The position numbers and the translations under genes are program-made. A DNA stretch of 63,998 nt, the filler included, from Jimgerdemannia flammicorona (taxonomy: Eukaryota), in assembly GCA_003990765.1 (NCBI GenBank). It is 3 parts of 3 records of this genome, joined end to end, with 100 filler letters (N's around TTAATTAATTAA, not from the genome) between each part and the next. Parts side by side here need not be neighbours in the genome. Positions count along the whole stretch, not along the records: positions 1 to 21,349 come from RBNJ01001474.1; 2 more parts are not named here. One strand, given 5' to 3'. The notes beneath the pieces were generated by a model. That model had not been told where the DNA came from and made no database searches. It saw only the letters and a program-made list of their open reading frames with translations. Below are positions 169 through 58,201 of this stretch, in pieces (positions within the stretch are counted from its first letter, which is position 1; every line of letters starts with the position of its first letter).

Positions 169-2090
169 AGTCAATATGAAGTCATGGAACACAAGATTTA
201 TATAAACAGAATCTTACCAATCAGGACTAAATGCATATATACTGAGCACCAAGATGCATTGAACAGAGAACTAAAACAAATAACAACCATAACTTCTAAA
301 CATACACAACCATAACCACTGAGATCTACAACCACATCCGTGCTGACATTTGGAATGCCATTGTCAACTGAGCCACACCTCCTCTACCCCTCATGAATAT
401 CCATAGCCTAACACCCCTCTACTTCATGGAAGCCTGATGGAATGCCCTGAACATGCTTAATGAGGTCCACCAAATTGGACAAATCTCAAGCTACTACTAG
501 ATTGGCTGCCTCCTAGAAGACATGGTCAAACACCACCATGATATGGACATTACCCAGATGTCTCAACACCAGAAGCTCATTGCCCACAAACATAGAGAAC
601 TCTTCTATGAGTATAGCACCTTTATTCTCTGCCTCTGAGTTACTATCAGTAAAATGGTTGCTACTCTATCCTATGGTCAAATCAATGACATGATATAAGA
701 ACTCAACCACAAGTACCTTGAGTACATCCAGACCACAGACAGAACCTTCCCATACCCTGATGACTACATCTTGCAAATGCCCCAAGTTGGATATACTATG
801 AAGGATGTCTATGATATAATCTGGTTCGATGAAGATGAAGCAGAAGATAATGATCTCTCTAACACTGATATGACCTCAAGCCAAGAATTCCTGCCAACAC
901 TAATCACACTACCAACCTTGCTGATGAACTTACAACAGTTTATAACCACCTATGAGACTTATTGGGACAATGACCACTGGCACAAATATCAACCCACATT
1001 CACCCCCAATTACTTCAACTACAATGAAGAGACTGGAGAACACAACCTGTACCTCCAGACAACCCTCGAGATCGAACCAACCACTCCACTACCCAAGTAT
1101 GAGTGACATGAACCACAGCCACCAGCATACTACAACCCTGCAACTCATAGTGCTGTAACCTATAGGAGGTATATAGATAGCGAATCCGATAAAAGCGAAG
1201 ACAATGTACCACTCCTTTGCCCCCCAATACCTTATTCAGCATATGAGACAGATGATGCTATCCTGTGGGATGGTGATGAAGTTCCAATATATTATTATCT
1301 CAGCAAACAAGGAGAAGTAATCTGTGAACCACTCTTTCTAGATAACTACTTCATCAGAGATGATGTCATCAATGGTGATGTCATCAAAGACTACACAGAT
1401 AGTGTCTAAATCTATAAATAGCTTAGCAGTCATAGTATAGTTAGATTAACCTTATATGACATGACTGTGAACTAACTCAGCAGTCAGACAATCTCTTGAC
1501 ATATCAGATCACTCTTGTACTATGACTGCATTCTGACTCAGTAAGGCACTTAGTGCTACATCCATATTTAGCATAGTCCAGATAGCCCCTCACTAGTATA
1601 AATACCCCCTCCCCCAGACCTCAGAATCTCAGACTTGAAAGACTTGAACACACAAGAACATTCCTGAATACTTCCCCACAATATCCCTTTATACAACTAC
1701 TCCTAGTATAGTAATATCATAAATAGTGAATAAACCTATTTAATAACCCACAAACTACTCTTAAGTAAATCTACTTCCCATTAGGCCCACTCCTAACCCC
1801 ATCATGAAATTTCCTAATTGGGTATTGTCTGTAGCGATATACCAATTCAACTAAGCTGGTCTTAGTTTCTTGAACTTCCTGAAATATGGAAAATCCTGAA
1901 CATCTAGAACTAGTCTGAAAAAGGACTTTGATTGAGATGTCAATCTAATTTTGAAATCAATAAGCATAGAGAATGTACTCTATACGAAATTGATCTTGAC
2001 CATAGAAAACAGTCTTCCAGAATATTCAGAACTTCCAGAAAACCCTTCCAGAACTATGTAATGGTTACCCTAAAAAGCAACCCTCTTATA
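165..2090 (+). repeat. LTR-A copy 1, lacking its first ~140 bp; no PBS follows, so it is a 3' or solo LTR
   Basis: Colinear with 49317-51376 and 53653-55713. It ends CCCTCTTATA (CA>TA). TATA motif GTATAAATACCCC at ~1596. Confidence 0.9.
312..1409 (+). pseudogene. LTR-A-internal accessory ORF (365 aa), copy 1
   Basis: 1098 nt, the same length as the other three copies. The start is ATG>ATA and the stops derive from CGA/CAG/CAA. Confidence 0.85.
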
Positions 2091-2299
2091 ATTAGAAACA
2101 GTATAAATTTATTTAGAAATTTACTTGTTAGTCACTACTAATTTATTTTAAATTTTATTTTGTTTTATTTTTTAATAAAAACCTATACTTGATCCCAGAC
2201 TTAAGCTAGAATATTATTTATTACATAATTGGGAAGATATTTGAATTGAAGAGACCAAAGATAAACTTTGTATAGTTTATAATAAAAACTATACTCCTT

Positions 2300-2961
2300 T
2301 ATCTAGATTAATTAATTGAATAAGTTCTAAAGATTATAAAGAAGTAGAAGATAATATCAATGCTATACTATATAAATATATATTTAATAAAAGATAAAAA
2401 CTGATAACAAATTCTGAGCAAGAGATAGATACTTATTTGAAAAGTAAAACTATTAAATTTCAAGTAAGAGTTGATATATTATTTTGATAGTAAGTGAGTT
2501 AGAAATTTATATTCAAATTAGATCAATTCAAAATATTATTTGAGTTTCTCTAATTGATTTAATTGATTGGAAATATTAGGACCATAGTAAAGATTTCTCA
2601 AATTTAGCAAAAATAGCATATAACTACTTAGCTATCCTAGTAACAAGTACTCTAATTGAGAGAGTTTTTTCAAGTAGTAAAGATCTTAAGTAGCTAAAAG
2701 AGGTACTTTAGACTTTAAAACAATTCATAAATATATGTATTTAAAGATATGTATAACAATTAATCTAATATTCCAATAATAATAGCTAATCCCAAATCTT
2801 AAAATATAGTTAAATTTTGAAATACTAAATAAATATAATACTTGGGTATCATATTATACTAGTATGACTCAAAATTTATAAATATACTATATCCAAATAT
2901 AATTTCTAAATATATATCTGATTGTTATATTTGAATATGATTTTTGTCATTTCTAGCCCTA
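2300..2961 (+). mobile_element. Heavily decayed hAT relic: C-terminal dimerisation domain and probable right end
   Basis: ~2550-2755 reads WK..HSKDFSNLAKIAYNYLAILVTSTLIERVFSS..RGTL, the hATC motif. It ends ...CTAGCCCTA (TAGGGCT-type terminus). Left boundary is approximate. Confidence 0.7.
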
Positions 2962-3109
2962 ATGAGATAAGTGAGATATCATTGTATCTATCCAGAAGTA
3001 CTATAGATAGATGACAAGTAGTATAAATTATATAATATATAGAATTTTGAATATATTCAAAGCTTAAGAATATATATTATATACTTAGTCACTATATCCA
3101 AAATACTTA

Positions 3110-3432
3110 TACTTATAAGCTTGTAAGCTCATAATTCTATAAGCAATAAGAATAAGTTGAGAGCTTCAAATATTATAATAAGCTTAAGCTAAGAGCTTTG
3201 AATATTGCAACAAGTACAAGACTACAATCTTGCAAGTAATAAAAGCCCATAAGCCTACAATCCTATAAGTAATGAATATAAGTCAAGAGCTTCAAATATT
3301 ATAATAAGTATAAGCCTGTAATTTTACAAGTAATAAGTATTAGCTGAGAGCTTCAAATATTGTAATAAGTATAAATCCACAAGCCTGCAAGCAATAAGTA
3401 TAAGCTGAGAGCTTCAGATATTACAATAAGTA
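3110..3432. repeat. Degenerate ~60-bp tandem repeat
   Basis: About five recurrences of GAGAGCTTCAAATATT.. ..AAGCAATAAG. Confidence 0.7.
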
Positions 3433-3764
3433 TAGATAAAATATATATATATAAATAAGCTGACTTTAATAATAATAAAAAACAAACCAAAAACTAAAAA
3501 CTAAAAAATAATCTCACCTTATAAAAAACTTCAATTCTATGTTAATCATCTTTCTAGAGTCTTTGAGAATATGAACTATACTATCAACAAGGTTGTTATT
3601 AGATTGAATAATGAAGAATCTAAGACTGATGATAAATATAAAAAGAAAAAGAAAAAGATTAAAGAAGTAATTAAGTAATTAATCTCAAGGATTAAATCTG
3701 AAGCTATCCCTCAGACTGCCCCTGAAGTCTCTACTTCTGAGACCTCTAAGACTCCTGAAGATAT

Positions 3765-4075
3765 TGCTCAAGCCTAAGCTATTACCTAAGCCCAAGTCAC
3801 TACCACCTTAGCCCAAGCCACTGCTCAAGCCCAAGCCACTATCTAAGCCCAAGCTACTCTCTAAGCCCAAGCTATTACTTAAGTCCAAGCTGCTGCCCAA
3901 GCTCAAGCTGCTGTCTAAGCCCAAGCCACTACTTAAGCCCAAGCTGCTGCCTAAGCCCAAGCTACTGCCCAAGCCCAAGTCTAAGCCCAAGGCCAAGCCT
4001 AAGCCCAAGCCCAAGCTACTGCCTAAGCCCAAGCTATTGTTCAAGCCTAAGCTGCTGATCAAGTCTAAGCTATAA
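3765..4075 (+). repeat. AAGCCC/AAGCTGCTGCCC low-complexity array, a decayed (Ala-Gln)n coding repeat
   Basis: One frame reads AQAQAAAQ with many CAA>TAA stops. Confidence 0.7.
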
Positions 4076-4264
4076 CAATTTTATAGTCATATTTAGTCTT
4101 AGTATATTTTTGCATCTTTTAGTTAATCTTTTCTTATTATTTCTTGAATATTCTACTATATTCCACCACCTTTTACTTGCTTAGAAACCTTCTCTTAGTG
4201 TCCAGACACCACTAGAATACTCTTATCTTTCCTTAGTATTAAGCATCTTATCTTAGCTAGTTAT

Positions 4265-5816
4265 TGTTATGTAGTGGTCGCTGAGTCCTTCAAATATGCC
4301 AGATTCTCTTCAAGGTATATCTCTTAGACTAACTCAAGTTTGTTATAAGCAAGTTCTTATTGGGGTGCCTTCCCAATATCTTATAGTCCTCAAACTTCTT
4401 ATCTTTAACTGTCTTGTTATCTCTTAAATTGCTTACAAGAAAGTATGTATAAGTGAAACCAGAACTGACTTTATTTCAAAGGAAATAAGAGGAGTATTTA
4501 TACAAAATATAATTCAATGGTTGCTAAGATATAAAGCTAAATATAAATTCTAATAACTAAAATAAAATGCCAGAACAGAAAAAACTGCTAAGTTCCAGGG
4601 TCAGTATTGATGGTTGTATAGGTTCAGGATACTGGTATAATTTGGTGTTATATCAAATGCCAGTGCTGGCATTATTCAGTGTTACATCAAATGCTGATGC
4701 TGGCATTATTCAGTATAACCAAGGGACTTAGAGCAGAATGTTCAGAACTATGGAGGCTTTATCTTTATCATCAGAGGTCAGGATATCTTCAAAGGAGATG
4801 AGGTCTGCAAATTTATCTTTGTTGTTGTTGTCATTATATAGATAGCACATCTCACGTGCTTTGATGTTGCACAGGATGACATCATTGCTGATGACATCAT
4901 TGCTGATGACATCATCATGTTCAGTAGCAGGGAAATTGAGAACAAGGAGATCTGAAGCTCTCCAGTCTATGAGGTTCTCTTCCACAAAATAGGAAACAAA
5001 TGTGGAGTCTTTGGGAGGTCTAATCTGGATGCTTGGGCCTTAGAATATTGAGATCAATCCTTGCAGAAATTGGTCTGGGTTGTCCTGGAGGATGGGGTGT
5101 CAGAAGTCTTCTACTTCATCACTATTGAGGGTGATAGTAGACTGGGCTTCTGTAGCCACTCTGACTTCTAGTACATTGATACAGCAGGATGACAGATCTC
5201 TGAAATCTGAGACTCTAACATACTCCAAGTTGGGGATCGACTATAATGTATGCCTGAAGATCTGGTGGATCTTTTTAGCTATCCTTGCCTCATGTATATC
5301 CATGGGAGTGGTATCTTGAGGACTAACTCCCAGCAGAGGAGATTTCTTATTTCATACTCCTGCCATATTTGGAGGCATTCAGTAGCAATGGTGATCCTTG
5401 TTTCCATTTCACAGCAGTAGAGAATATAGTGATAAGAGTCACCAGTACCCAGGTTAATACTAAGAGTCCTTCTTGAGTGTGTCCTCATGGCTCTTCTGAT
5501 GTCTTGGAACATCCTTTCATTGACTGAGATACCTTGGTGGTTTCTTGACCTTGAGGTTTGGCAGGCAGCAGGCATTTTGTTTGTGGTAAGTCTTTGAGCT
5601 ATTTTGAGATTAGTGGGTCTTATTGGTTGCTGCTACTGCAGTTCCTTGATCCTTCTTTTATATTCCTCAAGATATCATACTGTGGTCACAATGACTCACA
5701 GTTGGTCATCATTGCTTATCTCATATGCTGTATGATCTTCTTGTGCTCTGATCTGGTGGCTTGCAAGGAAAGACTATCTCCTGTGCTGATATCATCATTC
5801 TGGGATCACTGTTATA
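4265..5816 (-). repeat. 3' LTR of B1 (~1.55 kb, inferred)
   Basis: The outer end matches the 5' LTR stub next to the PBS at 42784. The inner end is inferred from PPT AGGAGGAAGA plus TGTAAC, whose context matches the family C PPT. Confidence 0.65.
4728..5575 (-). pseudogene. LTR-B-internal accessory ORF (~280 aa), copy 1
   Basis: ORF fragments 5279-5575 and 4728-4985. Homologous to the LTR-A ORF. Confidence 0.7.
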
Positions 5817-7646
5817 TCTTCCTCCTGAATAAGGATCTTCTCAAGCATCCTTATTTATTAGTCCAGTTCTAAAAAAATTGCTGATCTCATAATCTCTAGC
5901 AAGGGGTTGAAAAGTGGTATTTATAGGCTGGCATCTTCTCTTTGTATTTTGGCATAATGGTGAAGGGTTGCTCTCTTTATATAGAGCAAGGACCTGATCT
6001 GATCTTGACCAATCAGTTGATAGTTTGAACTCCTCTAGCTTTGAAAGTCTCACAGATGAGTAGCTGCTAGTACTGTATCCCTTAGAGAATAGTTCAGATA
6101 GATAGCCTGCTAGTCATGAGACATACTGTTATAATTCACAGACTAGAACCTCATGGGCAGTCATTACATTTTGCTTCTCTTATATAGGTTTATAGTACTT
6201 CTTGAGTCTGTTCCTATGTACCATGGTAGGCTATGGTCTCTGAGATTTTTCTAAGCCAGAAAGTAGTTTCCTTGATATCTTACATATAGAAGGGTTCTTC
6301 TCATTTGGGCTCCAGTTTTCATGACCATGAGACTTCTACTATATTTCGATACAGTAAAACCTTTTCTCTGATTTGGATGGGTTCTAGGGTCTTGTGATTC
6401 TTTTCTGCATTCTTCCTTGTTAGCACTTATGACTTGATAATATAATCTTCAGTCTTCTTCCTGATTTGGTATAGTCTCCTGATTTCTGCATTGACTCTTC
6501 TCCAAGTTAGGTCTAGATTTGTGGCTGAGGTTCCATCAGAATCTTCTTCTCCAAAGAGCAGTTCTCTTGAGGTAAAGTGTGTGCTCTGTGATTGTATATC
6601 TCATAGGACAGAGAGGGCAGTTGGGAGATAGTTATCTCAATTCTCATATATCTCTGAGATCTTTACCAGAATGTTCTTGAGGGTCTTATTGGTTCTCTCT
6701 ATCTGTCCATTTCCTTGAGAGTGGTACATAGTGGTCTTGATGTACTAGATCTTGTATTTCTGATACATTATCTTGTGGAATCTATTGACAAATTCTGTGC
6801 CATGGTCTATTGTGATTTTCTTTGGTGTCTTGTAGCAGCAGATGATTTCTCAGTACAGGAAGTTGGCTATAGAGAGAGCATTGACTTCTTGTAATGCTCC
6901 TGCCTCTATCTATTTGATAAAGAGGTCTACAATAACTATAATATAGCAGTTTCCTGATAGTATTACTGATAGTGGCCCAATAATATTCATTGTGATGTAG
7001 TGGAAGAGGATAGGCTCAATTCTTGATGACCCAGGTGTCTGATCTTGCTGATCTTGTTTCTGTTTGTAGCACTTGTCATATCCTTTGATAAATTGGCACA
7101 GGTCTTCTTCCATCTTGGGCCACTATATGGTTCTTCTTACTTTGTCATATGTGTTGGTTCCTCCTAGATATCCTTGCTTATATACTTCCTTCATTACTTG
7201 ATACTTCTTATATTCGGGTATTACTAGCTTTTTTTCTTTTCTGAGTATAGTGTTATCTAGTTCAAACTGTTTTCAAGTCCAGTTGATGATGGTGATTATC
7301 TAGGGTTTGAGGTGGTTGGGCATCTTCTGCTGCCCAAGATAGCTAATTAATCCATAGTATAGCTCCTTATTTATGTTAAATAGTCTTGATGAGAGTGTTT
7401 CAAGGTATCCTTGAGAGTGCATCAGCATTGGTATTGGTTCTTCCTGAGCAGTACTTGACAGTACAGTTATACTCTTGCAGCCTGTAGATCCATCTGATAT
7501 ATATTCCTTTGGGATTCAGTATGTGGAATAGCCAGGCAAGAGCAGAATAGTCTGTTTGAATGGTGAAGTGTTTTCCAGCTAGGTAGTAGTGGAACTTATC
7601 TACTGCCCAGACTACTGCTAAGCATTCAAGCTTGCATAACTTATAG

Positions 7647-9712
7647 TGTAAGAGGGTTACTTTTTAGAGTAACCATTATGTAGTTCTGGAAAGGTTTTCT
7701 GGATATTCTGGATGTTCTAGAAGACTGTTTTCTTATGGTCAAGATCAATTTTGTATGGAGTATATTCTCTATGCTTATTGATTTCAAGTTCAGGTTGATG
7801 TCTTAACCAAAGTCCTTTTTCGGACTAGTTCTGGATGTTCAGAATTTTCCGTATTTCAGGAAGTTCAAGAAACTAAGACCAGCTTAGTTGAATTGGCATA
7901 TCGCTGCAGACAATACCCAATTAGGAAATTTCATGATGGGGTTAGGAGTAGGACCTAATGGGGAGCGAATTTACTTCAGAGTGGTTTGTGAGTTATTAAA
8001 TAGGTTTATTCGCTATTCATGATATTGCTATACTAGGAGTAGTTGTTTGAAGGGATGGGGAAGTGTTCAGGAATGTTCTTGTGTGTTCAAGTCTGAGATT
8101 CTGAGGTCTGGGAGAGGGGGTATTTATACTAGTGAGGGGCTACATACATATCTGGACTATACTAGATGTAGATGTAGTACTAAGTGCTTTGCTGAGTCGG
8201 GATGCAGTCACGTAGTACAAGTATGATCTGACATATCAAGAGATTGTCTGACTGCTGAGTCAGTTCACAGTCATGTCATATAAGGCTAATCTAACTATAC
8301 TATGACTGCTTAGACTATTTATAGGTTTAGGCACTGTCTGGGTAGTTCTCGATGATATCACCATCAATTGTATCATCTCTGATGAAGTAGTCATCTAGGA
8401 AGAGTGGTTCGCAGATTACTTCTCCTTATTCGCTAAGATAATAATACATTGGAACTTCATCTCCATCCCACAAGATGGCATCATTAGTCTCATATGCTGG
8501 GTAAGGTGTTGGTGGACAAAGGAGGGGTACATTGTCTTCACTTTCATTAGTTTCACTATCTGCATACCTTCTATAGGTTATGGCACTATGAGTCACAGGG
8601 TTGTAGTGAGCTGGTGGCTATGGTTCATGTCACTCGTACTTGGGTGGTGGAGTGGTTGGTTCAATCTCGAGGGTTGTCTGGAGGTACAGGTTGTATTCTC
8701 CAGTCTCTTCATTGTAGTTGAAGTAATCGGGGGTGAACACAGGTTGGTATTCATGCCAGTAGTCATTGTCCCAATAAGTCTCGTAGGCTGTTATGAATTG
8801 TTGTAAGTTCATTGGCAAGGTTAGTGGTGTGATCAGGGTTGGCAGAAATTCTTGGCTAGAGGTTATGTCAGCATCAGAGGGATTATTGTCTTCTGCTTTA
8901 TCTTCATTGAAGTGGATTATATTATAGATATCCTTCATGGCATATCCAACTTGGGGCATTTGCAGGATATGATCATTGGGGTGTGGGAAGGTTCTGTCTG
9001 TAGTTTTGATGTACTCGAGATACTTGTGGTTGAGTTCTTGTATCATGTCATTGATTTGGCCATAGGACAGAGTAGTGACCATTTCGCTGGTGGTAACTCA
9101 GAGGCAGGGAATAATAGTACTGTACTTGTAGAAGAGTTCTCAATATTTACAGGCGATGAGCTTCTGGTGTTGGGACATCTGGGTAATGTCTGTATCATGG
9201 TGGTGCTTGATCATATCTTCTAGGAGGCAGCCGATCTGGTAGTAACTTGAGATTTGTCCAATTCGGTGGGCCTCACTAAGCATGTTCAGAGCATTCCATT
9301 GGGGTTCCACAAAGTAGAGGAGTGCTAGGCTATGGATATTCATGAGGGGCAGAGGGGGTGTGGCTCCATTGACAATGGTATTCCAAATGTCAGCATGGAT
9401 ATAGGTATAGATCTTGGTGGTCATGTTTGTGTGTTTGGAAGTTGTGGTTATTGTTTGTTTTGATTCTCTAATTTGATATGTCTTGGTGCTCAGTATATAT
9501 GTATTTGATCCTAATTGGTAAGATTCTGTTTATGTAAATCTTGTGTTCTGTGACTTCGTATTGACTCAGCTTTGTATGCTGTGACTTCAGTTTGACTCAG
9601 CTTCATGATCAAGCAGGTGATTTCCAGATTTGTTCAGAGGTCGCATGTGATTTCAGTGGTTTGTTCAGAGGGTGACATGTAATTTTGGTGGCTTGGAGGT
9701 TGTGCACTTACA
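7647..9712 (-). mobile_element. Complete solo LTR-A (2066 bp) inserted in the RNase H region of B1
   Basis: TGTAAG...CTTACA termini. 5-bp TSD TATAG/CATAG; the uninterrupted site ACTCATAGTTC is seen at ~38910. Confidence 0.95.
8327..9424 (-). pseudogene. LTR-A-internal accessory ORF, copy 2
   Basis: ATG at 9424 to TAA at 8327, 1098 nt, with a few transition-derived stops. Confidence 0.85.
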
Positions 9713-10879
9713 CATAGTTCTGTTCTGCTCTGTGGGTACCTCAGCTTGCATAGGAGATGACATATTCATGTCTATCTTTCTTCTGAGCTAAGACTGCTCC
9801 AAGTTCTATAGCACTTGCATCTATCTGCAGGATGAATTCTAGGTTCCAATCTGGTCTTCTGAGGATAGATACTTGGGTCAATCTGGTCTTGAGTTCATTG
9901 AAGGTTTCTTGGTATTCCTTGGTCTATTCAAATTTGGTCTCCTTCTTCAATAGCTCATAGATAGGTACTGCAATATTAGAGTATCCTTTGATGAACCTTC
10001 TGTAGTAGCTGGCCAGTCCAAGGAAGACATAGACTTCTATGGTTGTTCTGGGTCTTGGGTAGGTTACAACAGCCTCAATCTTCATAGAGTCTGTGTGGAT
10101 TCTAGTCTGATTGATGAGGTGTCCTAGGTAGGTGATTTCCTGAGCTGCAAACTTGCATTTCTTGGACTTGATGTAAAGGCCATACTCCTTGAGCTTCTTG
10201 AGGGCTAGCTGTATGTGATTGATATGTTTCCATGCAGTATTGCTGAAGACTCTATTCATTATTTACTAAAAACTTACTGGGACATTGCATATTCCAAATA
10301 GCATTCGCAGGTAGATATAGGTGTAATGAAGACTGATTTCTTACCGGCATCTTGAGTGAGACTAATCTGATGGAAGCCTGAGAACAGATCCAGGGTGGTG
10401 TAGTATTTGGCTTCACTTCTAAAAGTGGTGAGGATTTCTTGAATATTTGGCAAGGGCTGCCTATCCTTCTTGGTGATGGTATTGAGCTTCCTGTAGTCAA
10501 TACAGAGTCTTGGTGCAAACTCTCCAGGCTTGCTTCCTTTCTTTGGGGCAAAGATAATAGGTGAGGCCTAGGGGCTGATAGCTTGCTTGATAATTCTGGC
10601 TTCTTCCATTTCCTTGAGTTCTGCTTGCAGCCATTCTCTATAGGTGGTCTGACTTTCTGGTAGATGGGCTTGGTATCACCAGTGTCAACTTTGTGGTAGT
10701 ACTTAGGTTCTTGATTGTGGATATCTCTGAAGTCTGTAGCAAGTACTCCTTTATTCTGGTGCAGAATCTTGAGAAGTTGTTCTTCCAGGGGGAAGTTTTC
10801 TCCAATAGTGTATGTGTGCTTATTCTGGTCCTTGCCTTTCTTATGCTTAAGTTCAGTAATCTTGGTAGTGGCATAGGCT

Positions 10880-11300
10880 CCTCTTCCAGTAGATCCAAAG
10901 CCTTGTTCTCCTCTCTTAGTCTTGATGAGTTTGATGGCTTCTATGATCTTGGGCTTCTTGATTTCATAGATCAGTATCTGGTCAATCCTGTCATACTTCT
11001 TGACTTCGAATGGAGTAGTGGGGTTGTGATTCCTGACTATGAGAAAGATCTTGCCAGTGTAATCAGGATTAATTACTCCTCCTTCAACTGAGATTTTGCT
11101 TTTGGCCAGACTGCTCCTAGTCTTGATAATTCCAGCATGGTTTTCTGATAGCTTGACTCCAATTCCAGTGCTAAGTAGGGTAGTAGTCTGTGGTTTGAGG
11201 GTAGTATCTTGAATGCTGGCAAAGTCCATTCCTATGGCTCCTTCAGTCTTATATTCTGGGATCTTGGCTTTGGGGTGAAACTTCTTGACCTTGAGGGTGA
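10880..11300 (-). pseudogene. dUTPase domain of B1 pol
   Basis: AIGMDF, TRSSLA, GGVINPDYTG, DRI.Q and RGEQGFGSTG correspond to dUTPase motifs 1-5. Confidence 0.92.
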
Positions 11301-12799
11301 TGTCTGATTCTTGTTCCTCTTTATTATCACTGTCAGCCTGAAGCTCTGGGGGCTGGTCATCTTCTTCAGCTTTCTTTTTTGCTTTGGTGGCTTCTTGCTT
11401 GTGTTTCTGTTGGTGGATTTTCCTGACTTCACTAATATAGGACCAGCAGTCATTCAGGTGTTCAGAGTAGTACATCCTAGTACCATAGGGACATTTTCCT
11501 TGAGGGGTATAGCTATTGATGATCTTGTTGTACCACTGCTCATCTGTGAGCTTGGGTATCTTGTTTTTGTTCTTGTTCACCAAGTGCATAAAGACCTCTG
11601 TATCCTCTTTATCTCTTTTCTCTATGTCTGGTAGAACTTCTTTGTAGACATTGATAGAGACTCATATCTTTCTTCCTCTATAGTTGATCTGCATCTTCTG
11701 GGCATTGAGGTCAATGATGGCCTTGGCCTTGTAAAGCCATTGGTTGCTAATGAGGATGTCATAGTTGGTGGTACTTATAATAATCACATCTACTGAGATA
11801 GTAGCTCCTCCTATTTTGATGGAGACTTCTCGGATTTTGCCAAGGGGGGTAGCTCGTGTACCATCTGCTGTAACATAGACCATCTTGGCGAACTCTTCAA
11901 TATCCCAACCTAGGCAGTCAATTGCCTTCTTGCTCATAAGGCATCCTCCAGTACTGGTATCAATGATGGTATCAAAGATACAGTCTTCAATCTGACATGA
12001 GGTATAGGCTGATGTCTTATGCTGGTCTTTGGATTCTTCACCTAAGTTTTCAGATTCTTCCTATGCATTATGAGCTTCTACAATCTTGTACTCTTGATTC
12101 TTGGCAGTAGTTGTAAGTCCTACTCTTAACTGCTGTCTGAAGGCAGGGACTTTGGCTAGCTGTCCAAAGGTAGCATTGACCTTCTGTTCCTTGAGATTCT
12201 TGTAGATATCATACTGATGGATCTTGGTCTTGCACAGCTTCTGTTCCTTCTTACTTTTGCTTTCTTCTGAGACTGGAGTTATGTCTTTAATGATTTGGTG
12301 AGCAGCTTCATCTAACTCCATATCTTGATCAATCTCCTCAGGTTGGGTCTTACTTTGAATAGTGACAGCTGGGGTCTTCTTTGGTCTTCCAACTGGCTTG
12401 CTGTTGCTCTTCTTATCATAGAGCTTGGACTGGGTTCTGGTACCTTCAGTAGCAGGGTAGAATTTGAGCTCCTTGTAGTATTCTTCATCATTAGTGTCAC
12501 CAATCTCCTCAATGACTACTGCATTGGTTTGTTCTCTAGTTCTGCTAGCATTGCTTGGTTGGGCTTTGTGTCTTGTTTTGATCATACAATTCTTTGCATA
12601 GTGGCCTTCTTCTCCACATCTGAAGCATGTGATATTGTATTCTTCTATAGTAGCTGCAAATCTCTACACTGGTCTTCTGTTAGCACTTCAGACTTCTCTA
12701 ACAACATCACCAAGGTGTACAGTTATCTTGGCGAACTGCTTGGTGAGTTCTTCTACTGGGTCAGCTTTGGCTGCCTTGGGTAGTGCTCCAAATGAGTCA

Positions 12800-18900: not shown

Positions 18901-19957
18901 GAGAGTGCATTTCCACCTCAAATACTCCCTCTTTTAACAATTATTACAGGATGAAAAATGAGTAAACTGGACCAATATATGAATTAAGGGCTGCTGTTTT
19001 GTTTGCTTGTGATGTGGCAGGAAAGAATAAAGAAAAAGAACAAAGAAAAGAGAGAGAATAAAGGAAAGAGTGAGGTCACTAAAGTGTAGCAGGAAAAAAA
19101 AAAACAAGAGTGAAATAAACAAAAGAAAGAGTGATATCACCAAAGATTTCAATCTGGATGGATCAATTCAGATTAATCCAGATCAATCCAGATCAGATCA
19201 TGAGACCATCCAAGTTGATTTGAATCAATCATATGACGAACCTGAATTGAATCTCATCTGGATCAACTCCATTCATTCAGAGCACTAGCCTTGGGAGTAG
19301 GTGGGGTTGGTTGTCTGTTTATAACTGTGACAGGTATGATACTAGTTGGCTTTAATGGCTCCATCTTGATGTCAGTTATTTTCTCTATTGAATATTCAGC
19401 AGGGTGTCTGGTAGTCCAATATCTCTGTGCAAAGACCACTTTCTGATCAAGGATCAGTGCAGCTGGAGTGAACTAGATTGCTAGGGCAATTTCAGAGTGA
19501 ACTCCTTTGAGGAAGATTGAATCTGCTATTTGTTTCTTAAGGGTATTATCATAGCCAGCCAGGATAATCTGGTGGTAGATTTGAATATAGAATGAGTTGG
19601 GATCTTCACTAAGTCTCTGGCAGATAGTATTGAGTTGATCCTTGAGAGCTTGCTTGATCTCTTCAGTATAATATGTTGTTCTGAAGAAGGCCTTCATGTT
19701 AGCAAGTTTGGCTCACCAGCATCAGCAATAGTGACTGTATTGAATATATCTCTGATAGGTCCTCTGAGGCTGACTGGTAGAAGGGCCAATTGAGCATCCA
19801 TACCAAGGGCTCATATGGTGGCGAATTGTTCAAAGTCTTCAATGAAGGTCAGGATTGACTCTTCAGTAGTATATCTATAGAATGTGGGGGGACACATTTC
19901 CATCTTGTCTTGAATTCTTATAGGGGTAACTCTTGTAGTCAGGGTAGTTGTTGTGGG

Positions 19958-21449: not shown

Positions 21450-23097
21450 TTTTTTAAACTCTTTCTTTTATAATAATAACTAACTGACTGATTGATATTT
21501 ATTTACTTAAATTATAAAGATATTTATATATATTAGCTAACTATAAGAATAATATAAAATAAAAAGATAAGAGTTGATAATAGAATAAAGAGAATAATAT
21601 AAGAAATATGTATAAAGTTATAGAGCTTTAGACTACTAGTAAGATTGTAAATATAGATATTATAATAATTAATCTCTCTCAAATATAAATACTATAACTA
21701 TCTAGTAATCAATCTTACTATCTAATCAGCTATCTTACTATATCTTTAGAAATAAATACTATTATCTATTTAAGTTATAGATCAGAGATAACTTATTGAA
21801 ATAAAGACTATAAAATAAAGATAATAAATATTCTATAAATATCAAATATAATATAGAGATAAGATAAATATAGATAAACTATAGAGATATATAAATAAAG
21901 AGAGAAATTAATACTAAATCAAATCTTAGACATTATCTTAGTTTGAGAGAACATTACTAGTTCTTAACTAATCTAGATATATCTTCATAGTCTCTATCAG
22001 AAATAGATATCAGAGATATAGAGATATATTTTTTTAAGTTTTTTCAAAAGAAGATAGAGTAGATAAAATGATCTATAGATAGTATTCTGATCAATTATCT
22101 TTTATAATATATTTTAAACTAAGAGAGATCTATAGATAGATAGATAACTGATAGATTCTAGATCTTGAGCTAGAAACTTCTTCTAATTCAAATTAGTAAT
22201 TATCTTTAGAAATTTCAAAATAGAAAGATTTCTCAGTAACTTTTACTGAGAGAAAAATCTCTTCTTCTAATATTAGAAGCTCAGATACTTACTAGTTAGA
22301 TTTTTATATAATATAATAGCTAGGGTAATTAATTGAGTAATATATAGCTCAAGTAGCTTCTTATAATACTTTATAATATAGTTTTTTAAAAAAAACCTCT
22401 ATAATACTTATATATAAGATAGTCTTATTGATTATCTTAAAGTAATATTTAGATATATAAGATAGTATAATAGTTTACTTTTACTATTATGATAATTATA
22501 TTCTCTAAGTTAATAATTTTTAGTATTAATAACTTAAAGATACTTATATCAGATATCTTTAGCTTGAAGAAGTGACTGTCTTAATACCTAAGTACTATCT
22601 ATTATACTTATAATTGATCTAGTCTTCTTCTGATAAACTATAATAAATCATTATATACCTATAAGTTACTGAAAATTCTGACAGAAATTCTGACAGAAAT
22701 TTCTATAGGAATTCTTATAGAGTTTCTAACTAGCAGTTATAGTTATCTAAAATAATATAAATATATATAAATATATTTAGTATATTATATTTAGTTATAA
22801 CCTTAAATATGTATAAATACTATCTATACTGAGTATATTGTAACCTCAGCTCTACTTTTCTCTCTTAAGAATAAATCAGTATTCTTATCTAAGAATCACC
22901 AGACCTAACTTATTAATGATTCTAAGTTTGATTAACTTGAGATACAAGTATAGTATTTTTTTTATATTCTATCAAAAGTAATACTTGGATAAGACTTATA
23001 CTATAGATACTTTGGAACTTAGTATTTTCTCAAAAACTCAGAACTTAGAGCTAATAGTCACTATTGACTATCTGTAATATATTAATTCTATAAATAT
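21450..23097. other. Extremely AT-rich decayed repeat tract, origin unassigned
   Basis: Near absence of CpG, TpA excess and no ORFs. Confidence 0.6.
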
Positions 23098-23569
23098 TGT
23101 GATGGTATAGCCAGATTTGGAAGAAGGAAATAGTGAACAGACACTTGATCACACCCAGTCCCAAAGTAGTATAGCCACATAGTTAGCAGTCCTCGATTCT
23201 GCCATTTGCTAAATATTTTGCAAAGTGTGAGATTGAGCTTCTCGATTTAGTATAGCATTTTGCAACTGATGAAATATTTTGCAAAGTGTTAAATGACTCA
23301 TAACTTAGCCATGTAACCCAGTAACCATCTCATAGCTAGTATGTAAACTTATATAAATAACCCAGTATCTTTGAGTGAATAAACCTCAGATTGAAATAGT
23401 TCAAAGCAAAAGAGATAGCAAAGGAACTAGTAAGCCTGCAGGCAGATACACTTCGAACTCACCCACCCTCTCCTGCAACTTCAAGAGACTCTGCGAGAGT
23501 CAGAACAGTCAAGTTTTCAAGATACAGAAATCTGATATACTTTCAAGAGTAAGTGTCCGCTATGTTACA
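23098..23569 (+). repeat. 5' LTR of C
   Basis: TGTGATGG...GTTACA, a direct repeat of 29350-29817. Confidence 0.95.
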
Positions 23570-23683
23570 ACTTGGTGCCCATTGGCTGGTAATTCAAGAT
23601 GAATCCCTCACTTTCAAGCTGAACAATGAACAACCACCACTACCCGAACAACCACATAAACTGAGCCCCAATACCCAGACAAG

Positions 23684-26600
23684 ATGGATATGAGACCACC
23701 AGTATTCCATAGATATACCTCAGACAAATCAATCATGACCTTCATTGATGATTTCGAACAGTATGCCACTGTAAGAACCCTGACAGCAGTACAGCAAGTA
23801 GCCCTCATGCCCTTCAGCCTATGAGGTTCTACCAGAGCAGTATTTACAGCCGCAACCTATACAGGAAATGATACCAATGCTATACTGACAGCACAGAAGA
23901 CCTGGCTCCGTAATACATATTATACAGATGAGATCAAGCAAGCCCTGAAGGATCAGCTCAATACAACATGCCAAGAAATGAGTGAGGATCCAAACACATT
24001 CTATATTAGAATTCGATATCAGATAATCCTTGCAGATTATGCTACTACTATCCAAGATCAAGTAGCCAAAGTAACCTTTATGAAAGGAGTCCATTTGGAA
24101 ATAGCCATGGCTATCTGCTCATCACCAGTGATTCTGGATTTGCCACAGAAGGTCACCTATACTCAGCGATACTGGATAGCTAGACATCCACAAGACCATA
24201 CAATGGAAAGGGTCACGGGAGTCAAAATTGAAGCACCCAAGGCAACCAGTGTGATCCCTACCACAATGATCAATCGAAACACACCTCAGCCAAAAGCTAC
24301 AGAGCAGCAAAAGAACAGTGACCCTATGGAGGAACTCACCAAAAGGTTTGCTGAAATGACTGCCCACCTGAGAGATGTGGTAAAAGAAATCTGAGAAAGA
24401 GATTGCTGCCCTATTCAGAAGTTTGCCACCACCTCAGACAAGAAGAAAGGTACCTGCTACAGCTGCAGAGAAGAAGGCCACTACTCCTATGAATACATGA
24501 GCAAAACCAAGTGCAAGGCTCAACCAAGCAATGCCACATGAAACAAGGAGCAGGCCAATATAATCACCTTTGAAGAAATTAGAGAATCTGATGAAGAGAA
24601 ATGGGAGGCCTATCCTGCTCAGACCACTAAGAAGGATGGTCACAAAGAACCCTACAAGAGACTGCTAGGAAGACCCAAGAAGAACCCAGTGGAAAAGCAG
24701 ATGGAAACTGTCACAGAAAGCCAAGCTGAAGAGATGGACCAAGATACAGAGCTGGAGCAAGCAGTTCAAGATATCATCTGAGGAACCACTCCAGCCAGTG
24801 AAGGAGAAAAAGAAAAGAAGCTTCACAAGACCAAGACCTTCAAGTTAGATATCTTCAAGGACCTCAGTCAATAAAAGGTCAATGCAACCTTTGGTCAGCT
24901 CATAGAAATCCCAACATTCAGACAGCAAATGAGGTTTGGACTTACCGAAACAACTAAGGAATAAGGATGGAAAATAACTGAGGCCAATAATGCTCAAGAG
25001 GACTTAGGAGAAAAAAGTGAGGACAATTGCAAAACCTCTGCATATGCAACATGCCAAATCGAAGATAGAATCTTTGAAGCCATCATCGATACAGGAGCAG
25101 GAGGGTGTCTCCTCAGTAAGAAGGCAGCAGACCACCTAGATTGGGATGTGGAAGAAGCAACTAAGCTGGTATTCATCACAGCTGATGGCACAAGAGCCAC
25201 ACCTCTGGGAAAGATCTGAGATGTTCCCATTAAGATTGGAGGAGCAACTATCCCAGTAGATGTAATTGTAACCAACGCCACCAACTATGACATCCTCATT
25301 GGCAATCAATGGCTTCACAAAGCCAAGGAAGTAATTGATCTCAATGCTCAGAAGATGCAGATCACCTACCGGGAACAGAAGATACAAATTCCCATCACTG
25401 TCAACAAAGGAGTCCTGCCTGATATGGAGGAAGAAGAGAGTGAGTAAGAGGAAGCTTATATGGTGACTACTCCAAAGAAGAAGAAAGTTGGATGGATAAG
25501 TGAAGAAGAATGGTACAAGAAGATGGCAGAAGGCTATGCACTACAAGGAGTCTGTTCTCATGGGATCAAGATATACTGTATGGAGCATGTCAATGATTGC
25601 TACCAGTGTACTATTGGAATCAGGAAGATCCACCAGGAAAGAAGGCAGAAAGCTCTTGAAAAACAGATCAGGAAAGAAGAGAAGGAGGAAGATAATGAAC
25701 CACCAGCTCTCCTGGAGGACAGTGATAATGAAGAAGAAATCAAGGTCAAGATTCGAAAGATCCACCCTGATGCAGTCTTGCCAGAATACAAGTCAGAAAA
25801 TGTAGCTGGAATGGACATCGCTACAGTAGAAGAGACTGTACTGGAACCCCAGACAACTACCCTACTCACAACTGGACTGGAGATGACCATCCCAAAGGAT
25901 CATGTTGGGATTCTCAAGACAAGAAGTAGCCTGGCTAGAAGTGAAATCACAATCAAAGGAGAAGTCATCAATTCAGACTATACTGGAGAAATTCTACTCA
26001 TTGCTAGGAATCACAATCCTACAATCCCATTTCCAGTCAAGAAGAAGGACCAATTGGCACAAATGTTGATCTTTCCAATTCTACAACCAAAGATCATAGA
26101 AGTTAAGAAGCTGGAGGAAATAAAAAGAGAAAAGAAAGGATTTGGATCCACAGGAAGAGGAGTATTTGCCAGCACCAAGATCACCGAACTCGAGCATAAG
26201 AAGGAGGAAAACACAAGCAAGCACAGCTACACCATCGGAAAGGAATTCCCACTCAAGAAAGAACTCAAGAAAATACTCCACAAATTCAAAGATATTCTTG
26301 TCATAGATTTCAAGAATATCAAAGGAAAGACCCCACACTACTATTATGAAGTAGATACTGGAAATACTGAACTAATTTATCAGAAGGCAAGATCTGTCCT
26401 GCCAGCCTACCAAGAATGGCTCAGAGAAGAAATCAAGCAGATGGAAGAAGCTGGTATCATTAAAGAAGCCAGCAGCCCCTGGTCCTCACCTGTTGTACTA
26501 GCCCCAAAAAAGGGCAGCAAGTCTGGAGAATTTGCCCCAAGACTCTGTATTGACTACAGAAAGCTCAACATGGTTACCAAAAAGGATCGCCAACCACTGC

Positions 26601-27676
26601 CCCTCATCAATGACATCCTCATAATACTGGGAGACGAAGCACAGTACTACAGCACTTTGGACTTATACTCAGGATTCCACCAAATCGGACTCACAGACAT
26701 GACAAGTGAAAAGTCAGCTTTCATCACCCCAGATGGAACTTACGTCTACCTACAAATGCTATTTGGAATGTGCAATGCACCAGCAAGTTTTCAGTAAATG
26801 ATAAACAAAATCTTCTGCTATGATATGGGAAGATGGATGATGGTCTATGTTGATGATGTAATCATCTACAGCCAGACACCAGAAGAATACCTATAGCACA
26901 TCCGGTAGATAATGGAAAGACTGAGAGAGCATGGCCTATACATCAAGCCCAAGAAATGCAAATTCGCAGAAATTGAGATCTCCTATCTTGGCCACATTAT
27001 CAACCGAGATAGAACACATACAGACCCCCTCAAGATACAAGCAGTGGCAGCATACCTAAGACCCACCACTGTTACAGAAGTCCAAACCTTCATGGGACTT
27101 GCCTCCTACTATTGCAGATTTATTAGAGGATTTTCTAATATTGCAGGACCAATCTACGAACTTAACAAGAAGGATATCAAGTTCCAGTGGACTGGCAGAC
27201 AACAAAAAGCATTCGATGAACTCAAGGTCAGACTGACCCAGGCACCCATCCTCAGAAGACCTGACTGGACTCAAGAATTCATCCTATAGACTGATGCAAG
27301 TGTACAAGGACTAGGAGCAGTCCTAGCTCAAAAGAAAGATAAAGTGGAGTATGTCATTGCATACCTCAGCTGTGGAACTTGAGGAGCTGAAAAAGAATAT
27401 GAATCCTACAAGTTGGAATGCCTCACAGTCATCTGAGCCATAGAAAAGTTCCACTACTACTTGGCTGAGAAACACTTCACTATTCAAACAGACCACTCAG
27501 CTCTCACCTGGCTACTGACAACTGGACAACCCAAAGAAATCTATGTCAGATGGATAATAAAGTTGCAAGCTTATGATGTAACCATTGTACACTGCTCAGG
27601 AAGAACAAATTCCAATGCAGATGCCCTCTCATGGATACCCTGAACTACCTCCAACCAACAAATCAATCATGAATAA
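23684..27676 (+). pseudogene. C gag-PR-dUTPase-RT-RNaseH, single frame
   Basis: CYSCREEGH knuckle, IIDTGA, dUTPase at ~25740-26160, LCIDYRKLN, VYVDDV, *TDAS and NADALS, all in one frame with transition stops. Confidence 0.92.
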
Positions 27677-28861
27677 GGAGCTCTACTATAGAATTATCAC
27701 ATACCTGGAACAGCGAAAGATGCCCCAACATCTGGAAGAATGGATACAAACAATTATCAACAGAACATGGAAACAATTCAAAACTGATGGAGAAATACTG
27801 AAGAAAGGAAAACTACTAGTCATACCAGAACACAAGAAGAAGCAAGTGATGAAATCAGTATATGAACTTGGCCATCTAGGAGGAATGAATACATATGACA
27901 AGGCAAGAAGAACAATATGGTGGCCAGGGATGGAGGAAGATATCAGATAATTTATCAAGACCTACAACAAATGCCAGAAACAGAAACAAGACCAACAAAA
28001 TCAAGCTCCAGGATCAGTACACATAGAACCAGTACCATTTGCCCACATTGCAATGGATGTAATCAGCCCTCTACCCTTGACTTTGACTGGCAACTGATAC
28101 ATCATCATCATTATAGACCTTTTTACAAAATGGATAGAAGCAGGACCCCTTATAGAAGCCAATACACAGTCAATTGCCGATTTCTTCCACAAAGAAATCA
28201 TCTGCCAGTTCAAGACCCCAAAACAAGTAACTATAGATAGAGGAACAGAATTTGTGAACTAGTTCTTCGAAGTTCTCTACAAGAAGTACAAGATCCAGCA
28301 TATTTGGACCACAGCATATTACCCTCAAGGAAACGGACAAGTAGAAAGGACCAACAAAACCCTCAAGAACATTATTGCCAAGATCTGTAATAACTATGAG
28401 AACTAGGATCACTATCTGCCAATAGCATTATCTGCTCTCCAGGATATCCAATCACAAGTACCCACTTTACCCCTCGAGAAATGCTGTTTGGAGAAGAATG
28501 TTCCCAGAAAACTCTATTATCTAATGGAGATACTGTATGGAAACATGTGGACATGAAAATACAGAAACTACACCAAATCAGGAAGAAGGCTGAGGATTAT
28601 ATAACTAAGACACAGACACTACAATGGAGGAATGTGGAAAAGACCCACAAATCCTTGGAGATTATCAAGATAAGAGACAAAGTCCTAGTGTATCAGAATA
28701 TGGTAGAAGCTTCATGGTCACGAAAACTGGAGCCCAAGTGGGAAGGACCTTACCTGGTGCAAGATATAAAAGAGATCACCTTTTGGCTACAAAAACCCTT
28801 AGGCACAATAATCCCCACCACCATTCACCGAAACCGACTCAAGAAATATCATGGCCAGTAA
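27669..28861 (+). pseudogene. C integrase, in the +1 frame with its own ATG
   Basis: MNKELYY, HHCC remnants (GHLG..KCQK), IAMDV, IDRGTEF, GQVERTN, KLEPKWEGPY. One 1-nt deletion near 28455. Confidence 0.88.
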
Positions 28862-29312
28862 CAAAAATACTGTGATGGTACTTAAGATCACTAGTACTGC
28901 CCAAAGAGCCATCGAGAGACAATGGTACACCACTGAGCCTCTGACCATAGAGGAGTCTTATGATAGTATCCAAAGTATTATGCAGACTCATCTCTCTCGA
29001 ATCTCACACTTCAAGGCCTATCAGCATCGAAATGAATTTCAAGAGTTCTTCAAACTTGGCCAAGTACTCAATCAAGACCCAGAAATGACCAAAGAAAATT
29101 GGATTGCAGAATGCCAGCTCTCCTATTCCCAGATCACCATTGCTAAGAGAATCTATAAGCTATTTTGAGAGGATGAATCAGCACTAGCCCATCTGTAAGG
29201 AGTAACCCCCTCAGACTTTGACCAAATTAGGCGATATCATTGGGAAACAGTAATGCAACAAATTGCACAGTACAAGACCATACAGACCATTGAAGCTTGG
29301 GAGTTTGAATAG
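28851..29312 (+). pseudogene. C accessory ORF (~153 aa) overlapping the integrase stop
   Basis: ATG at 28851. Reads FFKLGQVL..IAKRIYKLF*EDESALAHL*GVTPSDF..EFE*, with two transition-type stops. Confidence 0.75.
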
Positions 29313-29349
29313 ATGCTTCAGAGATGAGATCATCTATTCAGAAGGAAGT

Positions 29350-29817
29350 TATGATGGTATAGCCAGATTTGGAAGAAGGAAATAGGGAATAGATACTTGA
29401 TCACACCCAGTCCCAAAGTAGTATAGCCACATAGTTAGCAGTCCTCGATTCCACCATTTGCTAAATATTTCGCAAAGTGCGAGATCGAGCTTCTCGATTT
29501 AGTATAGTATTTTGCAACTGGAAAAATATTTCGTAAAGTGTTAAATGACTCATAACTTAGCCACATAACCCAGTAATCATCTTATAGCTAGTAAACTTAT
29601 ATAAATAACCCAGTATCTTCGAGTGAATAAACCTCAGATCGAAATAGTTCAAAGCAAAAGAGATAGCAAAGGAACTAGTAAGCCTGTGGACAGATATACT
29701 TCGAACTCACCCACCCTCCCCTGCAACTTCAAGAGACTCTGCGAGAGTCAGAACAGTCAAGTTTTCAAGATACAGAAATCTGACATACTTTCAAGAGTAA
29801 GCATTCACTATGTTACA
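29350..29817 (+). repeat. 3' LTR of C
   Basis: Follows the PPT. TG>TA at the start; ends GTTACA. Confidence 0.95.
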
Positions 29818-31396: not shown

Positions 31397-32072
31397 TATA
31401 AGAGAGTTACTTGTTAGAGTAACTATTATGTAGTTCTAGAAGGGTTTTCTGGAAGTTCTGGATATTCTAAAAGACTGTTTTCTTAAGGTTAAGATCAATT
31501 TTATATAGAGTATGTCTTCTATGCCTATTGATTTTATAATTGGGTTAATGTCTCAACCAAAGTTCTTTTTTCAGACTAGTTCTAAATATTTAGAATTTTC
31601 CATATTTCAGAAAGTTCAAATAACTAATACCAGCTTAGTTGAATTGGTATATTACTGTAAACAATATCTAATTAGAAAATTTTATGACAGGGTTAGGAGT
31701 GAGACCTAACAAAGATTAGATTTACTTAAGAGTAATTTATGGGTTATTAAATAGATTTATTTGCTATTTATGTTATTACTATACTAGAAGTAGTTATATG
31801 AAGGGATATTGTGGGAAAGTGTTCAGAAATGTTTGAGTCTGTTCAAGTCTGAGATTCTAAGATCTGGGGGAGGGGGTATTTATACTAGTGAGGGGCTATT
31901 TGGACTATACTAAATATAGATATAGCACTTAGTATCTTGCTAAGTCAGAATATAGTCATATTATATAAGACTAATCTAACTATACTATGACTGCTAAGCT
32001 ATTTATAGATTTAGACACTATCTGGGTAGTCTTCAATGATATCACCATTGATGACATCATCTCTGATAAAGT
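31397..32072 (-). repeat. Decayed LTR-A fragment (3' third)
   Basis: Matches 7647-~8390 with additional transitions and a ~60-bp deletion. Confidence 0.88.
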
Positions 32073-32398: not shown

Positions 32399-32465
<67 letters not shown>

Positions 32466-34670: not shown

Positions 34671-34747
34671 CTAAATTTAATAATCTTTAGCTTATTAGAT
34701 TCTCTTATATAAGAGAAATCTAATAAACTAAAGATTATTAAATTTGG
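34671..34747. repeat. 77-bp near-perfect palindrome flanked by TTAT
   Basis: The arms differ by two transitions and one indel, with no loop. Confidence 0.8.
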
Positions 34748-42663: not shown

Positions 42664-42794
42664 CTTGTCTTGAATTCTTACAGAGGTGACTCTTGTAGTC
42701 AGGGTAGTTGTTGTGGGGGTTGTTCATTTTTCAGCTTGAAAGTGAGGGATTTGTCTTGAATCACCAGCCAATGGGCACCAAGTTGTCATATAGT

Positions 42795-58098: not shown

Positions 58099-58139
<41 letters not shown>

Positions 58140-58201
58140 GTCACTTGGACTCATCCTTTATTACACCCATCTATCCCATATAAGTACAGTGAACCCACCC
58201 C

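Follow-up and report, generated by a model that had tools for sequence, protein, structure and literature searches.

The 63,998-nucleotide stretch of DNA from Jimgerdemannia flammicorona analyzed here (three parts of assembly GCA_003990765.1 joined end to end, filler included; hereafter the window) harbors at 7647-9712, on the minus strand, a 2,066-bp unit that encloses an open reading frame (ORF) of 365 codons. Our analysis indicates that this 2.06-kb repeat is probably the long terminal repeat (LTR) belonging to a chromovirus (Ty3/Gypsy) family, hereafter family B, whose U3 region carries a complete 365-codon accessory gene. In such an LTR, some 288 nt of 5' U3 would precede the ORF, which takes up LTR positions 289-1386 and would be followed by about 200 nt with the TATA-type motif TATAAATA, an R region with AATAAA, and U5 extending to position 2066. 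The notion that the LTR encloses a whole, once-intact gene is supported, although all copies in the window are inactivated.

The limits of the repeat were read from its ends and its junctions. The unit begins with TGTAAG and ends with CTTACA, i.e. it shows TG..CA ends within a short inverted repeat, and the same termini are found on the LTR at 53653-55713. It lies within a copy of another Gypsy element, named element A. In the self-comparison of the window, its segment at 4269-7647 is collinear with 35549-38918 of a second A copy and its segment at 9710-10249 with 38910-39449, and a third collinear copy of A is situated at 55714-56739; hence, the 2,066-bp unit represents an insertion into A. 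The left flank ends with AACTTATAG ahead of TGTAAG and the right flank opens with CATAGTTCTG past CTTACA, while AACTCATAGTTCTG and GACTCATAGTTCTG, each with a single CATAG, stand at the insertion site in the two host-element paralogues that lack the insertion (approximately 38910-38918 and 56202-56210). Therefore, TATAG at 7642-7646 and CATAG at 9713-9717 are the two copies of a 5-bp target-site duplication that has experienced one later transition. Since no internal sequence is attached to the unit, 7647-9712 is a solo LTR of family B, as judged by blastn, self-comparison and junction reading. The earlier note on this DNA had set the LTR limits by the solo copy with its target-site duplication and by the polypurine tract and primer-binding site of another copy, and these limits hold, given the TG..CA ends, the 5-bp duplication and the two empty paralogous sites.

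Further copies were found by blastn of 7647-9712 against the whole window. Two full LTRs are located on the plus strand at 49317-51376, where the initial TG is mutated to TA and the match itself begins at 49319 (86.1% identity to the solo copy), and at 53653-55713 (86.8%). Another plus-strand copy at 162-2090 is truncated at its 5' end and lacks approximately the first 140 nt of the LTR (86.3% identity over 162-2088), and a minus-strand fragment at 31391-32072 comprises the LTR 3' end together with the last 19 codons of the ORF (82-84%). The truncated copy at 162 abuts a run of about 27 A at 135-161, which may be the poly(A) tail of a retroposon that cut the LTR.

The parent element of this LTR is represented by a tandem array on the plus strand, in which 47003-51376 is repeated as 51350-55713 with 91.8% identity. 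The array consists of a truncated 5' LTR reduced to its final 27 bp (47003-47029), a first internal region of 2.29 kb (47030-49316), the full LTR at 49317-51376 that is common to both internal regions, a second internal region of 2.28 kb that is 92.3% identical to the first one (51377-53652), and the full LTR at 53653-55713. The polypurine tract AAGAAGGGGAGAGT directly adjoins both full LTRs (49303-49316 and 53639-53652), and each internal region is opened by ACTTGGTAGCAGCAG, once after the LTR at 51377 and once after the 27-bp remnant. A TGG-initiated, primer-binding-site-like sequence, TGGTAGCAGCAG, begins 3 nt past the LTR at these two places (47033-47044 and 51380-51391), so that the claimed polypurine tract before the LTR at 49317-51376 is recovered and a candidate is seen for the claimed primer-binding site after it; the window contains no tRNA genes and hence no tRNA that could be matched to TGGTAGCAGCAG. 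In internal region 1, one frame at 47551-48900 encodes remnants of the C-terminal half of the integrase core, of a Tf2-1-type SH3 domain and of a chromodomain, with Pfam matches to SH3_Tf2-1 (E 8.4e-16), Chromo (E 1.9e-9) and, weakly, rve (E 0.0014). These remnants between the LTRs identify family B as a chromovirus, in agreement with the previous assignment to Ty3/Gypsy. Gag, protease, reverse transcriptase and RNaseH were not recognized in the 2.28-kb internal regions, and nothing upstream of the integrase remnant matches Pfam; the only element that retains internal sequence has suffered internal deletion and is a non-autonomous derivative, forming a tandem array with a truncated first LTR. 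The array at 47003-55713 replaces about 1.1 kb of an A copy (the equivalents of 37329-38427 are missing) and looks like the product of unequal LTR-LTR recombination plus deletion. Element A was considered as the autonomous partner of family B and rejected, because it is on the opposite strand, no B-type LTR abuts it, and tblastn with the B integrase remnant gave no match (E<=1e-3).

A first line of evidence for a gene inside the LTR comes from the frame itself. In the solo LTR, the ORF of 365 codons plus stop occupies 8327-9424 on the minus strand and is interrupted by premature stops at codons 95, 109, 265, 269 and 333. Its counterparts lie at 49604-50701 (five premature stops), 53940-55037 (three) and 312-1409 (six, with ATA in place of the start ATG, which is kept in the other three copies), and all four share the terminal TAA. 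In the MAFFT alignment of the four long LTR copies (162, 7647, 49317 and 53653) the ORF takes up columns 290-1388, i.e. 1,098 nt without a gap in any copy, which bears out the exact frame length reported in the earlier note. The claim that every stop is a sense codon in another copy was likewise confirmed, because the premature stops are spread over 13 codon columns, each of which is read as sense in one or more copies, even codon 109, which is a stop in three of the four. If a codon column is counted as open when any one copy lacks a stop there, the longest open run is 366 in this frame compared to 48-147 in the other five frames, no column has a stop in all four copies compared to 4-18 such columns, and the stops total 19 compared to 42-153. 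Moreover, none of the 11 indel events falls within the 1,098 ORF columns, while all of them are found in the 845 flanking columns (P ~1e-4 under uniform placement). Both the frame controls and the indel placement argue that the open frame did not arise by chance.

The copies in the window have decayed by C-to-T and G-to-A hypermutation, which is strongest at CpG. At least 90% of the differences between copies are transitions; 268 of the 274 variable ORF columns are at sites with C or G in some copy, and where every copy has A or T, variation is confined to 6 of 511 columns in the ORF and to 6 of 375 in the 3' non-coding LTR. When the C/T mismatches were sorted by the 3' neighbor, they amounted to 76% of comparisons at CpG, 27% at CpA, 20% at CpC and 6% at CpT, and CpG reaches an observed/expected ratio of 0.26 in the LTR. 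For most stop columns, another copy has CGA, CAA or CAG; hence, most of the premature stops fit the C-to-T process, by which a gene is disabled through conversion of these codons into stops while its frame stays untouched. The other repeat families of the window are also transition-biased (transition/transversion ratios of 10-81, few gaps; the bias was measured on 162-2090, 7647-9712, 49317-55713, 4269-12784, 35549-42057 and 23097-29818), which points to a process that affects the repeats of this genome in general. Classical repeat-induced point mutation (RIP) was rejected as the decay process, since its indices were not reached (TpA/ApT 0.80-0.88; (CpA+TpG)/(ApC+GpT) 1.27-1.37), and a plant-type CHG bias was rejected as well (CAG 0.26 is similar to CAT 0.27, and CTG is 0.035). 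The decay is ascribed to methylation and deamination or to a RIP-like process, with an unusual context preference.

The best evidence for a real coding sequence is provided by relatives of the ORF outside the window. An exhaustive HMMER search of 1,835,955,588 representative proteins, in which one X-read translation served as query, gave two matches only. The first, P0004, is a 'hypothetical protein' of 128 aa from a 1,180-bp JGI/IMG metagenome contig, corresponds to residues 1-128 with 84% identity, and is free of stops where the window copies carry one to five; at several sites it has Arg where the window copies show Cys, His, Gln or a stop, as expected from CpG decay of CGN codons. The second, P0003, comprises 247 aa from a 998-bp ENA metagenome contig, covers residues 115-365 and has the same C-terminus; 148 of 251 positions are identical (59%) and 199 similar, with only two 2-residue gaps and no stop. 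The preservation of the frame at such divergence, with in-frame gaps only, argues for past coding constraint, and the view that the ORF is a real coding sequence is thus supported by stop-free relatives at 84% and 59% amino-acid identity, bearing in mind that databases hold only copies that still look like ORFs.

The same comparison helps to judge whether the open frame could be fortuitous, i.e. whether copies that diverged nearly exclusively by transitions and without indels would give the appearance of conservation to any frame. The prevalence of transitions of at least 90%, and the similar behavior of the other repeats in the window with their few gaps, are in line with this explanation. 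However, it does not account for the other five frames, which have 4-18 columns with stops in all copies and no open run above 147 codons, for the avoidance of the ORF by all 11 indels, or for a relative that is still open at 59% amino-acid identity; hence, a fortuitous frame is hardly credible. Near relatives of the repeat are also present in three DNA-type sequencing runs, in which short contigs that are 85-99% alike (2,969, 442 and 425 contigs) cover all 30 bins of the LTR, although no long piece shows the source organism there. Because these contigs cover the ORF as well as the LTR 5' end, the ORF appears to travel with the repeat.

The position of the ORF within the LTR was deduced from motifs. 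In LTR orientation, the ATG is at 289, the stop at 1384-1386, TATAAATA at about 1585, AATAAA at about 1705 and the LTR end at 2066. The sequence TATAAATACCCC (8117-8128, minus strand) is identical in all four copies and likely represents the LTR promoter at the 3' end of U3; together with AATAAA (8005-8010, minus strand), a candidate polyadenylation signal in R, it is situated downstream of the ORF stop codon in each copy. Since the AATAAA follows the invariant TATAAATA after some 120 nt, which corresponds to the usual layout of the U3 end and R, the ORF most likely lies wholly in U3, in which case the genomic RNA would carry it near the 3' end but not at the 5' end. Upstream of the ORF, CCAAT (9514-9518, minus strand) and the TATA-like CATATATAC (9493-9501, minus strand), a candidate promoter of the ORF, are found 70-95 nt ahead of the ATG, and the leader is free of ATG in three of the four copies. 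It might therefore be proposed that this upstream motif is the true LTR promoter and that the ORF is the first cistron of the genomic RNA, within an R region of about 1.5 kb. Such an arrangement would, however, require not only this long R but also the bypass of the AATAAA in the 5' LTR, and it would leave aside the stronger TATAAATA with the AATAAA about 120 nt further on; moreover, CATATATAC fails the strict TATAWAW consensus, which two downstream sites pass. The conservation of these promoter motifs carries no weight in either direction, because they consist of A and T only and such sites barely vary here. Hence, a leader position of the ORF in R appears very unlikely compared to its location in U3.

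An own promoter for the ORF, distinct from that of the LTR, is possible but unsupported. The earlier note had pointed to CCAAT, an upstream TATA-like motif and an A/C-rich leader as promoter-like elements, followed by a second TATA box past the stop codon. All these motifs, including CATATATAC and the downstream TATAAATACCCC, are indeed present, but CCAAT occurs five to eight times per LTR, and the leader is not special, because the whole sense strand of the solo LTR is rich in A and C (A 725, C 542, T 495, G 304). Among the recorded RNA runs, none contains the stretch. One further sequencing run, X6, whose label as RNA is a guess, showed a contig depth of 127-1,133 over 7716-8060, of 0.26 in 8061-8129, of 0-10 in the bins of the ORF and of 48-68 at 9441-9712, and four of its contigs end about 16 letters past 8054, approximately 50 nt downstream of TATAAATA. 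This suggestive pattern would fit a start downstream of TATAAATA and lends no support to an upstream promoter; it was not counted as evidence, because contig depth cannot rank parts of the stretch, the run may be DNA or stem from another organism, and the 85% threshold disfavors the diverged ORF.

Selection on the encoded protein was assessed among the four copies. Variable ORF columns are distributed as 98, 45 and 131 over the three codon positions and transversion columns as 9, 1 and 12 (chi-square 8.8, P ~0.01), and G makes up 25%, 10% and 13% of the bases at these positions, a composition of coding type. The ratio of nonsynonymous to synonymous changes (N:S) is 22:26 (0.85) on the internal branch that separates the tandem pair from the other two copies, 60:59 (about 1.0) on the branches that lead to the 162 and 7647 copies, and 43:26 (1.65) on the presumably neutral branches of the tandem pair; the contrasts to the latter gave Fisher P values of 0.09 and 0.13. 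On the branches with pre-insertion history, N/S is about 0.85-1.07 in this frame; when read in the other two frames, these columns gave values of 2.6-4.6. The codon-position bias of non-transition changes, which had been proposed as a test, thus appears in the transversions, but the in-window signal of purifying selection, though pointing in the expected direction, is weak.

Several observations weigh against our interpretation of the ORF as an accessory gene in U3. Beside the weak selection signal, the divergence of the ORF (9.6-15.5%) exceeds that of the 3' non-coding LTR (7.0-10.4%), and the ORF is not poorer in transversions per site than the latter. Much of the codon-position bias can be attributed to C+G content, since sites bearing C or G vary with frequencies of 0.45, 0.34 and 0.54 at the three codon positions, compared to 0.35 in the 3' and 0.54 in the 5' non-coding LTR. 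The assignment to U3 follows from motif position, and the window contains no autonomous element with family B LTRs. P0003 and P0004 may or may not lie in LTRs; scans of metagenome, genome and viral contigs provided no relative that would show their DNA context. Finally, the protein itself gives few hints. No Pfam family passed the cut-off for P0001-P0004 and none was found at E<=0.1 for P0003 and P0004, the best sequence match in PDB had an E value of 0.084, and AlphaFold2 reached a mean confidence (pLDDT) of 32.1 for the whole protein and of 51.8 for residues 1-128.

The additional information on the product is in line with this picture. It is predicted to be acidic (isoelectric point 4.0-4.4), hydrophilic and rich in Tyr, Asp, Pro and Glu. 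The only sub-threshold Pfam match, RAMP with E 0.067, was obtained for P0001, and the search in PHROGs found no family. The ESM Atlas model of P0003 (pLDDT 0.39) yielded no usable feature match (TM score <=0.30), and Foldseek with the model of residues 1-128 gave 0 matches in PDB at E<=0.001. Common to the models, at low confidence, are only four or five helices within the first ~140 residues, and the remainder is poorly ordered. Hence, the 365-codon product is an orphan protein.

Considering these points, the ORF could be a mere passenger, i.e. a host gene or retrogene that entered the U3 of a single master element, was amplified along with it and does nothing for the element, with P0003 being the host gene or its orthologue. 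The weak selection signal, the conservation of the ORF at a level no better than that of the non-coding LTR, the lack of a retroelement-type domain in the orphan protein and the two relatives known without DNA context would all agree with such an origin. However, beyond the two short metagenomic fragments no homologue was found among 1.84 billion proteins, so that no conserved host family is visible, and P0004 with its 84% identity is a less decayed member of the same family. Moreover, the absence of indels from the ORF, compared to 11 in 845 flanking columns, and the short contigs that are 85-99% alike and span the ORF and the LTR 5' end in three DNA-type runs argue against a passenger. We regard this origin as improbable and favor the accessory gene.

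If the accessory gene is part of U3, its multiplication would be a direct consequence of the element's life cycle. Reverse transcription would copy U3 to both element ends, and each insertion would therefore carry the gene twice and a solo LTR once. Its expression could be achieved from an own promoter within the initial 290 nt of the LTR, with an mRNA of about 1.45 kb terminating at the AATAAA of the LTR, or, equally open, via a spliced subgenomic RNA. By analogy with retroviral accessory proteins encoded in U3 or at the 3' end, the product would serve the element in trans. In LTR retrotransposons, accessory genes usually reside in the internal region and disappear on collapse to a solo LTR. 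For a gene in U3, the copy number follows the number of LTRs rather than that of elements, and the protein can be provided even by copies that are solo or non-autonomous. It might be speculated that the family keeps a self-contained cassette of promoter, 365-codon ORF and polyadenylation signal in its LTR, which survives the LTR-LTR recombination that deletes gag-pol. Then, the genome would be dotted with numerous independent units that express an orphan trans-acting protein, and the protein could serve the family including its non-autonomous derivatives or be raw material for host domestication. We consider this extension rather doubtful. Solo-LTR formation had been proposed to leave a complete gene cassette, and the layout with ORF and AATAAA in one LTR agrees with it, but the solo copy at hand carries five premature stops. 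Nonetheless, the orphan protein represents a concrete candidate for a role in transposition or in the escape from silencing.

Further features were noted in the remaining parts of the window. Element A (35527-42717; also 4269-12784 plus 19290-19957) encodes a gag zinc knuckle, protease, dUTPase, reverse transcriptase, RNaseH and integrase. No terminal direct repeats were detected for it (word size 9, E 1e-3), though three copies have the low-coordinate boundary in common; the element has either no LTRs, very short ones or LTRs too diverged to be detected. A third Gypsy element at 23097-29818, about 70% identical to A, shows dUTPase-reverse transcriptase, RNaseH and integrase zinc-finger matches and is bounded by 474-bp repeats with 92.6% identity (23097-23570 and 29349-29818), i.e. 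by short LTRs that offer no room for an ORF. In these neighboring Gypsy elements, a dUTPase is located between protease and reverse transcriptase at 10255-11661 (minus strand), 39898-41103 (minus strand) and 25448-26794 (plus strand), with E values of 1e-24 to 5e-27, and two database searches with the dUTPase-reverse transcriptase ORF of element A retrieved one relative, a JGI metagenome protein with 82% identity. The elements are separated by AT-rich stretches (GC 26-30%) at 2089-4268, 34184-35526, 42718-45184 and approximately 30000-31400, which are mutually dissimilar, contain internal tandem repeats in some cases (3124-4073 and 43342-44941) and probably belong to the unique background sequence of an AT-rich genome. 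The C-rich region at 58101-63998 (GC 48-49%, GC skew of -0.41 to -0.46, shared with 32427-34183) displays long open frames on either strand, and Pfam gave only a weak match to RVT_1 at 60010-60474; part of the region recurs at 32427-34183 (77.6%), and it is probably another retroelement. The window has no Rfam matches, and no host genes were found among the 40 window ORFs scanned.

One question is how the gene in the family B LTR relates to known accessory genes of retroelements. The closest parallel is the sag gene of mouse mammary tumor virus (MMTV), a complete superantigen ORF in the U3 of a betaretroviral LTR, by which a U3 gene manipulates the host. As in MMTV, a complete accessory ORF is found inside the LTR and, judged by motif position, upstream of the likely LTR TATA box, and the gene would be present in both LTRs, in solo LTRs and at the 3' end of the genomic RNA. 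Unlike MMTV, the carrier is a chromodomain Ty3/Gypsy retrotransposon, and no sequence relation to Sag or to other accessory proteins of retroviruses was found with Pfam for P0001-P0004 or in PDB, where no match fell below E 0.08. The nef genes of the human and simian immunodeficiency viruses and the bel/bet genes of foamy viruses are 3'-end accessory genes that overlap U3 and start upstream of the polypurine tract. The ORF described here would similarly represent a 3'-end accessory gene using U3 sequence, but it differs in that the whole ORF begins 288 nt inside the LTR.

Additional ORFs (aORFs) are also carried by LTR retrotransposons outside the retroviruses, and some of those in plants are situated between pol and the 3' LTR. 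In the consulted parts of the literature, plant aORFs are characterized as orphan and fast-evolving, some of them on Ty3/Gypsy elements with long LTRs (PMC7264820; PMC3485330), and ORF0 of Retrosat2, RIRE3 and RIRE8 is placed in the internal region, upstream of gag-pol (PMC3485330). Phrases that would place an ORF within an LTR do not occur in the aORF review (PMC7264820). The gene of family B resembles the plant aORFs as an orphan extra ORF on a Ty3/Gypsy element, and differs from them by its location inside the LTR instead of the internal region. Bdelloid rotifer LTR retrotransposons have reportedly captured additional ORFs as well and thus share with family B the presence of ORFs beyond gag and pol.

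Among fungal chromoviruses, extra domains such as a dUTPase between protease and reverse transcriptase in PosPlaTy3-5 have been described, and a figure legend lists an 'add. ORF' of unknown function (PMC2864245). The consulted sections mention no LTR-borne ORF. Family B shares with the surveyed fungal chromoviruses the chromodomain integrase, and element A the dUTPase between protease and reverse transcriptase. No report of a whole ORF inside a Ty3/Gypsy LTR was found in the Creative Commons papers of PMC and in bioRxiv, main texts only, which is consistent with the statement of the earlier note that LTR-encoded genes are unusual in this group. A U3 gene in a chromovirus would show that this arrangement arose independently outside the retroviruses. 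Collectively, our data support the view of family B as an LTR retrotransposon with an accessory ORF, which is probably placed in U3 as in MMTV.

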